Positions 11,887-14,023 of a stretch of 43,949 bases of DNA are shown here, piece after piece. Source of the DNA: Escherichia phage vB_Ec_DUEC01; the sequence record PQ799475.1; one strand, 5' to 3'. A program made the position numbers and the translations under genes. Each line of letters starts with the position of its first letter. Within the stretch, counting starts at the first letter, position 1. The notes beneath the pieces are model-generated. The model ran no database searches and was not told the DNA's origin. It saw only the letters and a list, made by a program, of their open reading frames with translations.

Positions 11887-11890
11887 AACT

Positions 11891-11910
11891 AAGGCCCCGA
11901 AAGGGGCCTT
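11891..11910. terminator. bidirectional hairpin terminator (AAGGCCCC-GAAA-GGGGCCTT)
   Basis: same stem family as 4865-4885 and 24765-24784; between convergent major tail gene and minus-strand cassette. Confidence 0.65.
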
Positions 11911-11913
11911 TTC

Positions 11914-12072
11914 TTATTCCTTCAATTGCATAGGGTAGAAGTTAACGTGTTCCCCTTTATTCTGACGCTGTAAACACTCATCTAACGCATCTTCCCGGCT
12001 ACTTACGGCATAGATATCATTCCACTCGTCCCATTCTTCGTCGTATACTCGGATTACATATATTGTTTTCAT
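11914..12072 (-). CDS. hypothetical protein (52 aa; alternative start 12129)
   Basis: last ORF of the minus-strand cassette; acidic, W-rich (YDEEWDEWNDIY). Confidence 0.4.
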   Translation of the reverse strand: MKTIYVIRVYDEEWDEWNDIYAVSSREDALDECLQRQNKGEHVNFYPMQLKE

Positions 12073-12079
12073 AATATTT

Positions 12080-12310
12080 TCACTCGTCAATATTGCTTCG
12101 ATACTCCCGTAACTTCTCCAGACTTTCAATTGCTTCCGCTAAGTCTGTTCCGGTGTCCTTGTGCCCGCGCAAGCCCATACACAATAGCTTCTTCAATGCG
12201 TGCTGTAACGCCGGGTCGCGGATGTCGAAGGCGCGTAGCACATCATAAACGTCTACTGTCATAGTGCTGCCGTGAGTGTTTGTCATGGTGCGGTTGTATT
12301 TATTTGTCAC
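12080..12310 (-). CDS. DUF3310-like small protein (tentative)
   Basis: motif DVYDVLRAFDI...HALKKLLCMGLRGHKD...DLAEAIESL resembles the DUF3310 pattern from memory; needs HMM confirmation. Confidence 0.4.
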   Translation of the reverse strand: MTNKYNRTMTNTHGSTMTVDVYDVLRAFDIRDPALQHALKKLLCMGLRGHKDTGTDLAEAIESLEKLREYRSNIDE

Positions 12311-12500
12311 TGTTAACTCTCTTAAATCGGGCTATGCCTGACTCGTTAATGTCGCCTATTTCAAAGAAGCTGCGATATTTAGGCGAATACATTCTTACGT
12401 CGCCATTCTCTAGGGTTATTCCTTCATATACAGCACCTACTTGGAACCCATTTTTCTCTGCGTACGGGCTCACATTGGTGCATTCATACATGTCTCTCAT
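12300..12500 (-). CDS. hypothetical protein (66 aa)
   Basis: RBS GGAGA; ATGA overlap with upstream phosphoesterase gene. Confidence 0.45.
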   Translation of the reverse strand: MRDMYECTNVSPYAEKNGFQVGAVYEGITLENGDVRMYSPKYRSFFEIGDINESGIARFKRVNSDK

Positions 12501-13627
12501 CCCAGCATCTCCGGTGAAATAGTTAAACGTGCAACCTCGCCATATTCGGCGCTATAAGTAATTACATTTGCACTACGGCCCGACATCCACCCTCCGCGGG
12601 AAGCATATGCATCTTTCGCCGCGAGAGTGCGATGTTGTTCCACTACCATATTCCTACTTTCTACAATCTTTTGATGGTGGAGATGCCCGACATGTGCGTA
12701 ACTGTACTCGCTTTCGCCAAATGCTTTTCTGAACTTAGCTATCATAATGGGCTCGACCACATCAAACCGGCATTTATGTCCGTGGGTAAAGAACAGCGTC
12801 GTTTTGCCGTGTCGCACCATCTTGTAAACATCCGGCGACGTATCGACGAATACACGAGGCTCGTTGTCGTACAGCGTACTGAACATCTCAGCTAACCAAA
12901 TCATTCCGCTTTCGTCGTGGTTCCCTTGCACGATAAGCAGGCGAACATTTTTGTGCTTAACGAGAGCCATATCGACGACACGGCGTACCATACGAATCAT
13001 GTAGCGGACCAGTTTCTGATAGCGCGTGTCAGCGTCAAGAACATGACCACTTGCAGGCGTAACGGCATCCAGACTATCGAAGTGCGCAAGGTCGCCAAGC
13101 AGGCTAATAACTCCTGTTCCCGCGTCTGGTGCTTTCTGGAACGCTGCGTCAAACCAACGGGAGAACAGGTCTTCCGCAATCTTCATGTCCCAGTCGTCGC
13201 CGCTCTCGTCAGCCCAGGCCAGCATACCTAGATGGAAATCAGACACAGTGTAAAGATTGAGCAGTTTATCGTCGCGTTTGGCTCGAACGGCTTTAACAGG
13301 CGCAACGGGCGTAATCTCTGACTTCATGCCCTCGATTACGGCTTTCATCAACTCGACCTGACGTTCGGCGTCGGTATCAGTCTTAACCCATTGCAGCTTA
13401 GTGTTGCCAAACTCGTCCACAAGTGACGATGTTCCTTTAATCTTGTAGCCGTCCGGCACAAGATGGCTCACGTCGCGCCCGTGGCCCACGCCTTTCTTAG
13501 CCAGCTTCGCTTTACGGATGCGAATAACGCGGTCGGAGATGCCGTATTTACGGGCTATATCGATAGTTTTAACTCCGGCGTTTAATTCTTCCTGTAACTG
13601 TTCGTCGGTTATTTTCTTCCGGGCCAT
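12497..13627 (-). CDS. HTH domain - calcineurin-like metallophosphoesterase fusion
   Basis: N-terminal helix-turn-helix-like segment (TIDIARKYGISDRVIRIRKAKL); phosphoesterase motifs DFH, GDLAHFD, GNHDE, HGH, GHLHH in canonical order. Confidence 0.7.
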   Translation of the reverse strand: MARKKITDEQLQEELNAGVKTIDIARKYGISDRVIRIRKAKLAKKGVGHGRDVSHLVPDGYKIKGTSSLVDEFGNTKLQWVKTDTDAERQVELMKAVIEGMKSEITPVAPVKAVRAKRDDKLLNLYTVSDFHLGMLAWADESGDDWDMKIAEDLFSRWFDAAFQKAPDAGTGVISLLGDLAHFDSLDAVTPASGHVLDADTRYQKLVRYMIRMVRRVVDMALVKHKNVRLLIVQGNHDESGMIWLAEMFSTLYDNEPRVFVDTSPDVYKMVRHGKTTLFFTHGHKCRFDVVEPIMIAKFRKAFGESEYSYAHVGHLHHQKIVESRNMVVEQHRTLAAKDAYASRGGWMSGRSANVITYSAEYGEVARLTISPEMLG

Positions 13628-13665
13628 GCTTACTTCCTCGTGTTTAGGATTTGTCCTATACTAGC

Positions 13666-13857
13666 TCACTTCTCGTTAACATTCGAGTTGCAGGCCCAGA
13701 TTAAAATAAATACCCACGGCAGCAGAACCCAACCAAGAAACAGATTAGCCATGAATATCGCTAATTTCGCTTTATGGTTGCGGAAGTATGCAACCAAGAA
13801 AGGTGCGAAATAGGCGAGCAGTGCAAACAGAATTAAGGAAACTGGTAAACTTGACAT
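13666..13857 (-). CDS. small 2-TM membrane protein, superinfection-immunity (Imm)-like
   Basis: two hydrophobic helices; YFAPFLVAYFRNHK...LGWVLLPWVFILIWA resembles the Imm-family pattern; start chosen at ATG with GAAGGGG RBS (track start 13872). Confidence 0.5.
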   Translation of the reverse strand: MSSLPVSLILFALLAYFAPFLVAYFRNHKAKLAIFMANLFLGWVLLPWVFILIWACNSNVNEK

Positions 13858-13884
13858 TTTAAACCCCTTCATTGTTGGTGTAAG

Positions 13885-13915
13885 CGAATAGTACCCTATT
13901 ATATTGGGGTGTGCA
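13885..13915 (-). promoter_or_regulatory. sigma70-like promoter TTGCAC-N17-TACTAT (minus strand)
   Basis: identical 31-mer to 5120-5150; sits ~25 nt upstream of the cassette's first gene. Confidence 0.6.
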
Positions 13916-14023
13916 AGTAATGTGATAGAATAATTTTGCGCCTAGTGTCGCACACGAAAAGCGGGTGGTTCCCGTCTGGCGCGTCAATCTTAACCTGTAA
14001 CCTCTTAACCAAAGGATTAAAGA

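Follow-up and report, generated by a model that had tools for sequence, protein, structure and literature searches.

Escherichia phage vB_Ec_DUEC01 carries, between its tail-tube gene and its tail-assembly-chaperone genes, a cassette of five open reading frames (ORFs) on the minus strand. The window analysed here, that is, the whole 43,949-nucleotide (nt) stretch of record PQ799475.1, represents essentially the whole 43.9-kb genome of a Kagunavirus-type siphophage of the subfamily Guernseyvirinae. The cassette is a conserved, separately bracketed minus-strand unit that comprises genes for an Imm-family protein, a helix-turn-helix (HTH)-metallophosphoesterase (MPE) and three small proteins of 66, 76 and 52 amino acids (aa). 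With a probability of about one half, it could be explained as an accessory operon that is transcribed on its own from an early-type promoter and whose separate products serve superinfection exclusion and DNA or nucleotide processing. The cassette is a mix-and-match island, not a single defined system. A preliminary description had not recognized the gene combination as a described system; it is, however, a standard and already annotated feature of Guernseyvirinae, not new as stated, as the locus is annotated in hundreds of Kagunavirus and Jerseyvirus genomes and the five-gene version is found in phage fBC-Eco01 (PMC9825357).

The separate nature of the unit is seen in its orientation, in the conservation of its genes and in the signals at its two ends. 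In the annotated relative Bas74, the structural genes lie on the plus strand, the minus strand holds a T7-like replication block (DNA polymerase, gp2.5-like single-stranded DNA-binding protein, exonuclease and helicase-primase), and the plus-strand right arm contains small genes and lysis genes. The region 11500-14300 is matched by 416 GenBank phage records, nearly all from Escherichia and Salmonella phages, with a top match of 92% identity. For comparison of the locus, 11 GenBank and 45 IMG/VR loci of Guernseyvirinae were used (56 in total). All five ORFs lie inside the tail operon as first described, have homologues in related phages, and show ratios of nonsynonymous to synonymous polymorphism (pN/pS) of 0.06-0.34, indicative of purifying selection. 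GC skew is negative across the block (-0.139 at 12001-13000) and positive in the flanks. The stop codon of the MPE gene overlaps the start of the 66-aa gene in an ATGA (12500-12497); a second junction of this type had been proposed, but the 66-aa gene overlaps the GTG-initiated 76-aa gene by 11 nt, and 7 nt separate the 76-aa gene from the 52-aa gene.

The 27-nt gap between the stop codons of the tail-tube gene and of the 52-aa gene contains a single hairpin, located 4 nt from the former and 3 nt from the latter, with a GC-rich stem of 8 bp, a GAAA loop and T-rich tracts on both strands. The terminator scan recovered this hairpin as the bidirectional terminator previously suggested, and its folding is stable on both strands (-16.8 kcal/mol, z -3.7, on the plus strand; -16.2 kcal/mol, z -2.65, on the minus strand). 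A stable hairpin adjoins the tube stop codon in 42 of 43 related loci, and terminators are annotated on both strands in the fBC-Eco01 record. With a promoter and a terminator to itself, an orientation contrary to its surroundings and a gene content that differs between close relatives, the cassette has the features of a phage moron or accessory unit. A structural or assembly role was considered and rejected: no cassette protein matches a virion family, and gene content varies between close relatives. None of the five proteins matches a defence-system model of PADLOC-DB (E <= 0.1). A different, strong hairpin at 14576-14599 (plus strand; 9 bp, 8 of them GC), with TTTTT after it, falls within the ORF of the second tail-assembly chaperone, where it could act as an internal attenuator or have a part in frameshifting.

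At the other end, the minus-strand promoter is composed of the -35 hexamer TTGCAC (13916-13911), a 17-nt spacer and the -10 hexamer TACTAT (13893-13888), with a predicted transcription start at about 13881. This promoter had been proposed as a strong sigma70-like one; its conservation bears out the promoter itself, but by consensus score it is only moderate (7/12), and its strength is judged from conservation and not from consensus match. The promoter scan also gave 10/12 to an overlapping ATCACA-N17-TATAAT at 13926-13898. The 16-mer AATAGTACCCTATTAT at 13887-13902 is present in seven copies in the window, versus 0.28 expected by chance, and the aligned sites fall into two classes. Class A (30912, 33212 and 33256) has the form TTGACA-N17-TATAGT with the palindrome AATAG-N4-CTATT inside the spacer, and points into the minus-strand replication genes. 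Class B (5121, 13887, 36855 and 38225) is defined by a common 31-nt block, TTGCACACCCCAATATAATAGGGTACTATTC, which on the opposite strand reads TTGCAC-N17-TACTAT with the palindrome over the -10 hexamer; all four copies sit at divergent gene junctions. The copy at 13887 reads into Imm and those at 36855 and 38225 into right-arm small genes, as expected from the promoter class that the cassette had been said to have in common with these genes. The copy at 5121 reads into an antisense gene of the head module (5094-4891).

The 31-nt block is found with at most six mismatches in 34 of the 45 related loci, and Jerseyvirus genomes carry TTGCAT-N17-TATTAT over the same palindrome in the same place. 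The arms of the palindrome are invariant and its centre is variable in 42 of the 45 IMG/VR loci, which is the pattern of a dimeric repressor site. An XRE-type HTH gene, antisense within the minus-strand replication block, encodes a protein with a match to PF01381 (HTH_3; E 4e-13), and its start abuts two tandem operator copies (33212-33227 and 33256-33271); its product is the obvious candidate, and a likely one, for the repressor of the seven-copy promoter family. The seven-copy element was previously found in fBC-Eco01 with PHIRE and named a phage-RNA-polymerase promoter (PMC9825357). The complete records of Bas74 and ST20 contain no annotated phage RNA polymerase. A sigma-70 promoter combined with a palindromic operator is the better interpretation of the element. 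A plus-strand promoter from the same palindrome toward the chaperone gene was also considered and rejected, with -35 matches that are poor and not conserved among class-B sites, although the Jerseyvirus 'sidste' does carry TTGACG-N17-TATTAA for such a plus-strand reading. The antisense gene of the head module (4891-5094, minus strand; promoter element 5121-5136) encodes an acidic 67-aa protein with a weak match to phrog_27256, is preceded by an exact copy of the cassette class-B block and is conserved as Bas74_0006; the sequence pattern of its product loosely recalls that of the 52-aa cassette protein.

Gene content varies across the 56 loci, and this variation can be described by four slots. 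Of the 45 IMG/VR loci, 30 have Imm in slot 1, 11 have there a 108-aa protein with a signal peptide that is unrelated to Imm (phrog_14165), and 4 have neither; slot 2 holds the MPE gene in all 11 GenBank and all 45 IMG/VR loci. In slot 3, the 76-aa gene (25/45) and a gene pair for a HAD_PNKP phosphatase and a P-loop deoxynucleoside monophosphate (dNMP) kinase (phrog_139; 16/45) exclude each other: no locus has both, three have neither and one is truncated. The same either/or holds across the entire genome in each of the three complete genomes that were tested, namely the window, Bas74 and ST20. In some loci the 66-aa gene comes before the 76-aa gene or an HNH endonuclease sets the latter apart, and slot 4 may be empty or contain the 52-aa gene, Rha/ANT, or HNH homing endonuclease genes. 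All four combinations of Imm or the 108-aa gene with the 76-aa gene or the phosphatase-kinase pair occur, so that reassortment between slots 1 and 3 is free. The HAD protein matches the PNKP phosphatase domain (PF25109, E 1e-19), and the trio of MPE, HAD_PNKP and dNMP kinase genes recurs in the podovirus Era103, there followed by a ligase gene. Era103 and ST20 share 57% identity in the HAD protein and 48% in the kinase, which, between a Kagunavirus and a podovirus of the Autographiviridae, argues for transfer of the block between unrelated phages. The trio is located at 2075-3132 of the ST20 locus (L010) and at 2998-5244 of the Era103 locus (L006). A marine contig (L086) also carries an MPE gene, 43% identical, and has a bona fide DUF3310 gene positioned two genes upstream of it.

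The MPE, the one constant component, is assigned to PHROG 704 by a full-length match (E 3.5e-165). An HTH at residues 8-44 is followed by a beta-hairpin and helix (61-104) and by the MPE domain (119-376), and the AlphaFold2 (AF2) model (predicted local distance difference test score, pLDDT, 91) has an N-terminal three-helix HTH bundle, a hairpin-helix linker and an MPE domain. The metal ligands D130, H132, D179, N236, H237, H282 and H317 are invariant in 48 homologues of 32-50% identity, in which H315 is nearly invariant. Although scores remain below the Pfam gathering values for Metallophos (24.7 bits vs 27) and Metallophos_2 (18.0 vs 21.5), the fold and the presence of all metal-ligand motifs (DxH, GD, GNH[D/E], H and GHxH) place the protein in the calcineurin-like superfamily. 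Structure search of the model gave PolD-DP1, Mre11 and SbcD, all nucleases, as the closest folds, and a sequence search of PDB gave only sub-threshold matches to SbcD, Mre11 and 'Nuclease MPE' (E 0.2-0.6). No Rad50/SbcC partner is annotated in complete Bas74 and ST20, and none flanks the MPE gene in the window; a 45-aa ORF of ST20 labelled 'SbcD' was rejected as a partner, as it is not an ATPase.

PHROG 704 is a large family (4693 clusters at 50% identity), detected in 2064 phage records, near full length in 1958 of them, with members in Drexlerviridae (T1 p16), Dhillonvirus, Guernseyvirinae, Era103 and Vibrio phages. Its genes lie beside lysis genes in T1-like phages and Dhillonvirus, in a DNA-metabolism block in Era103, amid DNA-metabolism genes also in T1-like phages and contig L086, and next to helicase, VRR-NUC, NinB or exonuclease genes in some lineages. 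In the neighbourhoods examined outside Guernseyvirinae, the MPE gene never adjoins Imm. The HTH, the nuclease-like fold and the genomic context together suggest DNA as the substrate.

The 76-aa protein belongs to phrog_2452, is present in 781 phage records and is sometimes fused to ligase, ATPase or phosphodiesterase genes. Its GTG start is supported by K4 and Y5, which are invariant in the family. The AF2 model (pLDDT 86) has a beta-hairpin and three helices, for which Foldseek against BFVD returned DUF3310 proteins at borderline values (E 6e-3 to 3e-2, template-modelling score, TM, 0.63-0.69); 'SaV-like' and 'nucleotide kinase' entries score in the same borderline range. No solved structure matches the protein. 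The earlier label 'DUF3310-like' is supported, at these borderline values, for the fold only and not by the Pfam hidden Markov model (HMM) of DUF3310 (PF11753), which is matched neither by the 76-aa protein (E <= 0.1) nor by any of 17 family members (E <= 1), and is matched by T7 gp1.7 and by the contig L086 ORF. DUF3310 constitutes residues 122-184, the C-terminal domain of the T7 gp1.7 nucleotide kinase (PMC9339283); the domain has been tied to gp1.7 nucleotide kinase activity, to SaV, an early protein that is toxic, and to a mycobacteriophage protein of strong cytotoxicity (PMC9339283, PMC8306868). Fold resemblance and replacement by the dNMP kinase pair suggest a nucleotide-handling role for the 76-aa protein. 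The gene preceding MPE in the T1-like phage JK16 was considered as a counterpart of the 76-aa gene, and the small gene after MPE in Dhillonvirus EP23 as one of the 66-aa gene; neither is homologous. The 66-aa gene is found in only 25 phage records, all Kagunavirus (pN/pS 0.14-0.22), and the 52-aa protein is conserved in fBC-Eco01 and 63% identical in ST20 (pN/pS 0.26). Neither protein has a Pfam, PHROG or PADLOC match.

The first cassette gene is supported as encoding a predicted membrane protein of the T4-Imm family, in line with the Imm-like protein with two membrane spans recognized earlier. The protein matches PF14373 with 48.3 bits (cut-off 27.9; E 9.3e-13; model positions 2-42 of 42) and phrog_1039, 'immunity to superinfection', with E 1e-22, and in residues 26-60 it shares about 50% identity with the Imm genes found in T4-like phages. 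Two hydrophobic membrane-spanning helices, LPVSLILFALLAYFAPFLVAYF and LAIFMANLFLGWVLLPWVFILIWA, were read by eye from its sequence, and pN/pS is 0.09-0.34. The start is likely the ATG at 13857 (63 aa), which is preceded by the ribosome-binding site (RBS) AAGGGG, and not the previously assumed codon at 13872, because the latter is without an RBS and lies only about 9 nt from the predicted transcription start. At the JSSK01 locus (L011, about 4137-4325), the GenBank annotation lengthens the MPE gene upstream to 400 aa, and an intact Imm ORF, 98% identical, is left unannotated.

Table 1. Features of the minus-strand cassette of vB_Ec_DUEC01 and its candidate regulator (positions in the window).
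Feature	Coordinates	Strand	Remarks
Imm-family protein, 63 aa	13857-13666	-	PF14373, phrog_1039; longer ORF begins at 13872
HTH-metallophosphoesterase (HTH-MPE), 376 aa	13627-12497	-	PHROG 704 / T1 p16 family
66-aa protein	12500-12300	-	ATG start overlapping MPE stop (ATGA)
76-aa protein, GTG start	12310-12080	-	phrog_2452
52-aa acidic protein	12072-11914	-	kept in fBC-Eco01 and ST20
Cassette promoter	13916-13888	-	TTGCAC-N17-TACTAT
Palindromic operator AATAG-N4-CTATT	13887-13900		overlaps -10 hexamer
Bidirectional intrinsic terminator	11891-11910		common to tail-tube gene (+) and cassette (-)
Candidate XRE/Cro-type repressor, 71 aa	33302-33517	+	outside cassette; PF01381 HTH_3

In the favoured explanation, the operon would occupy a fixed recombination hot-spot between the tail-tube gene and the chaperone genes in Guernseyvirinae. 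Host sigma-70 RNA polymerase would start at the operator-bearing promoter (13916-13888), transcribe leftward for about 2 kb and stop at the hairpin common with the tail-tube gene, and the XRE repressor would probably then bind AATAG-N4-CTATT at the seven promoters and shut the whole set off together. Each product would act on its own and not as part of a single machine. Judged from its homology to T4 Imm, the Imm protein might reside in the inner membrane and block the entry of superinfecting phage DNA. The HTH-MPE could be a DNA-tethered nuclease or phosphodiesterase of the Mre11/SbcD/DP1 type that cuts or resects DNA, with the host chromosome as its most likely target, thereby feeding phage replication. 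The 76-aa protein, with its putative DUF3310 fold, would be a nucleotide-handling partner, which other members of the subfamily replace by the HAD phosphatase and dNMP kinase, and the 66-aa and 52-aa genes would be optional cargo. The enzymatic core would serve host-DNA breakdown and nucleotide salvage, by analogy with T7 gp3/gp6 and gp1.7. That conserved core (MPE with the 76-aa protein, or MPE with HAD and kinase) points to DNA or nucleotide processing rather than exclusion. The interpretation given in the preliminary description is partly supported. A bolder version is possible, though on the doubtful side: MPE and its interchangeable neighbour, be it the minimal DUF3310-fold protein or the phosphatase-kinase pair, might form a widespread two-part phage module that turns host DNA into phage nucleotides or repairs breaks made by nucleases, with the 76-aa protein as the smallest functional relative of gp1.7 and with the AATAG-N4-CTATT element and XRE protein as a Guernseyvirinae early regulon.

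Several points weigh against this explanation. Promoter class is what suggests early expression of the cassette, and its hexamers are those of a 7/12 match only. RNA sequencing (RNA-seq) of a Kagunavirus has shown that the Imm gene is transcribed, with a peak late in a coarse 120-min course, and has grouped it with genes peaking after 100 min, a group that includes DNA polymerase and methylase genes and is apart from the tail genes (PMC12645636). That course probably spans several infection cycles, and neither confirms nor cleanly refutes early expression; the RNA-seq supplements for K1B4 contain host annotation only, without per-gene time classes for the phage. The 76-aa protein lacks the N-terminal two thirds of gp1.7, and neither hhalign comparison with T7 gp1.7 and with the true DUF3310 ORF nor HMM comparison gave a significant relation to DUF3310. 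The either/or pattern of slot 3 could represent simple allelic replacement at a hot-spot and not shared function, and the related loci that were counted are phylogenetically non-independent.

Two other roles for the enzymatic core are live alternatives, both rather unlikely. The cassette may encode a nucleic-acid break-repair module that acts as counter-defence by reversing host nuclease damage, such as that of anticodon nucleases and DNA-nicking defences. MPE would trim or heal damaged ends of DNA or RNA, such as those with a 2',3'-cyclic phosphate or a 3'-phosphate, or DNA ends that are blocked. Ligatable ends would be restored by the 76-aa protein or by the kinase and phosphatase, and a ligase would seal them. 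The gene order of Era103 (exonuclease, endonuclease VII, MPE, HAD_PNKP phosphatase, P-loop kinase and ATP-dependent DNA ligase) fits such a pathway, as do the PNKP-domain match of the HAD protein and the fusion of the 76-aa domain to DNA ligase in Aeromonas phages. Kagunavirus genomes, however, have no ligase (Bas74 and ST20 records), the kinase matches dNMP kinases (phrog_139) and not polynucleotide-kinase PHROGs, and the folds nearest to MPE are DNA nucleases and not enzymes of the lambda-phosphatase/CthPnkp type. With the same low likelihood, MPE could be a replication or recombination factor performing Rad50-independent, Mre11-like end processing of phage DNA (concatemers, recombination-dependent replication), that is, an ordinary DNA-metabolism gene parked in the tail module, with Imm and the small ORFs as unrelated morons on its promoter. 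The T7-like replication module, the presence of MPE at every locus compared, its near-universal distribution in the lytic phage groups listed above and its occasional helicase, VRR-NUC, NinB or exonuclease neighbours are consistent with such a factor. On the other hand, Bas74 and ST20 have no annotated SbcC/Rad50 partner, the gene lies beside lysis genes and outside the replication block in Dhillonvirus and T1-like phages, and salvage would account at least equally well for its close association with nucleotide-handling partners.

The reading of the five genes as one co-adapted host-interaction system of interdependent parts (for exclusion, takeover or anti-defence), implied by the preliminary description, is improbable. 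The single promoter, the overlaps that couple MPE to the 66-aa gene and this to the 76-aa gene, and the membership of Imm in a known exclusion family are all compatible with it, but the slot 1 and slot 3 alleles come in all four combinations, the 66-aa gene (25 records only) and the 52-aa gene are absent from most relatives, and homing endonuclease and Rha/ANT genes are inserted freely. Moreover, outside the subfamily MPE sits in quite different neighbourhoods, never beside Imm, and PADLOC gave no match. That description did hold as regards a separate minus-strand transcription unit, as judged from the conserved promoter/operator and the terminator. The least probable explanation is a mainly regulatory unit: antisense convergent transcription through the interval that separates the tube gene from the chaperone and tape-measure genes would, together with the bidirectional terminator, control the relative levels or the timing of tail-gene expression, and the proteins would be secondary. 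The block does interrupt the plus-strand late operon, a strong terminator follows the tube gene, and the promoter scan found no good plus-strand promoter upstream of the chaperone gene; but all five ORFs are under purifying selection, MPE is a large and widely conserved enzyme, and it is gene content that is kept, not merely transcription.

Two further observations concern other loci of the genome. A 248-aa gene at 17097-17843 (minus strand), with T5orf172/MUG113 and CapR endonuclease domains (phrog_681), is inserted in antisense orientation and separates the tape-measure gene from the tail gene next to it; its GC content is low and its skew reversed, and it is not in Bas74 and is probably a homing endonuclease gene. 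By comparison with Bas74, Rz/Rz1-like spanin genes fall within the head-morphogenesis module (5470-5856, plus strand); the holin and endolysin genes, at about 39.7-41 kb, are over 30 kb away.

The partner pattern, the spread of the HTH-MPE and the operator regulon are modestly interesting leads. The HTH-MPE is among the commonest uncharacterised enzymes of small lytic enterobacterial phages, and the either/or exchange in slot 3 provides a concrete functional lead for it; the operator copies and the XRE gene together map a probable early regulon. Kagunaviruses also serve as small chassis phages in therapy and synthetic biology, and a locus that tolerates gene exchange is a natural insertion site.

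The closest counterparts of the cassette as a whole are the loci of fBC-Eco01, Bas74 SonjaBuckley and SETP3, with the same position and orientation between tube and chaperone genes and sequences that are 87-92% identical at the nucleotide level; the very same five genes are found in fBC-Eco01, whose annotation includes the promoter and the terminator on each strand (PMC9825357). Nothing of substance differs from the loci in the Kagunavirus and Jerseyvirus papers, in which MPE is labelled 'DNA polymerase II small subunit' with no function assigned, and the BASEL paper makes no mention of the tube-chaperone locus. Imm resembles T4 Imm as a small two-helix inner-membrane protein that matches PF14373 above the cut-off. 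It is shorter than T4 Imm, which is 83 aa long, and is carried by an unrelated siphovirus, in which its exclusion activity and target are putative; in 11 of 45 relatives its slot is filled by the unrelated secreted 108-aa protein. The 76-aa protein resembles T7 gp1.7 and lactococcal SaV in its small fold, at borderline values (Foldseek E 6e-3 to 3e-2, TM 0.6-0.7), in a K-x-x-x-R-G-x-K ... DL-x-x-A pattern seen by eye, and in being a phage gene with an early-type promoter that is swapped for a dNMP kinase in relatives. It differs from gp1.7 in that the N-terminal 120 residues are absent and the Pfam model is not reached, and its kinase activity and toxicity are putative.

The fold of MPE is closest to those of Mre11/SbcD and PolD DP1, from which it differs by an N-terminal HTH and hairpin domain in place of a capping or OB domain, by the absence of a Rad50/SbcC partner in the genome and by sub-threshold sequence similarity. 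T1 p16 and Era103 gp26 (PHROG 704, 'DNA repair exonuclease') are full-length relatives with 45-48% identity and the same HTH and MPE domains, and differ in genomic context; no experimental work on any member of this T1 p16/Era103 gp26 family was found. At the level of the MPE fold, the cassette enzyme can be compared with gp48 of mycobacteriophage A10ZJ24 (PMC12287305), which is from another phage group and host and for which no N-terminal HTH is reported. This MPE is expressed early and has phosphodiesterase activity; it degrades host DNA, thereby blunting host defences, and is required to overcome them (PMC12287305). It provides a working precedent for the role proposed here for the HTH-MPE.

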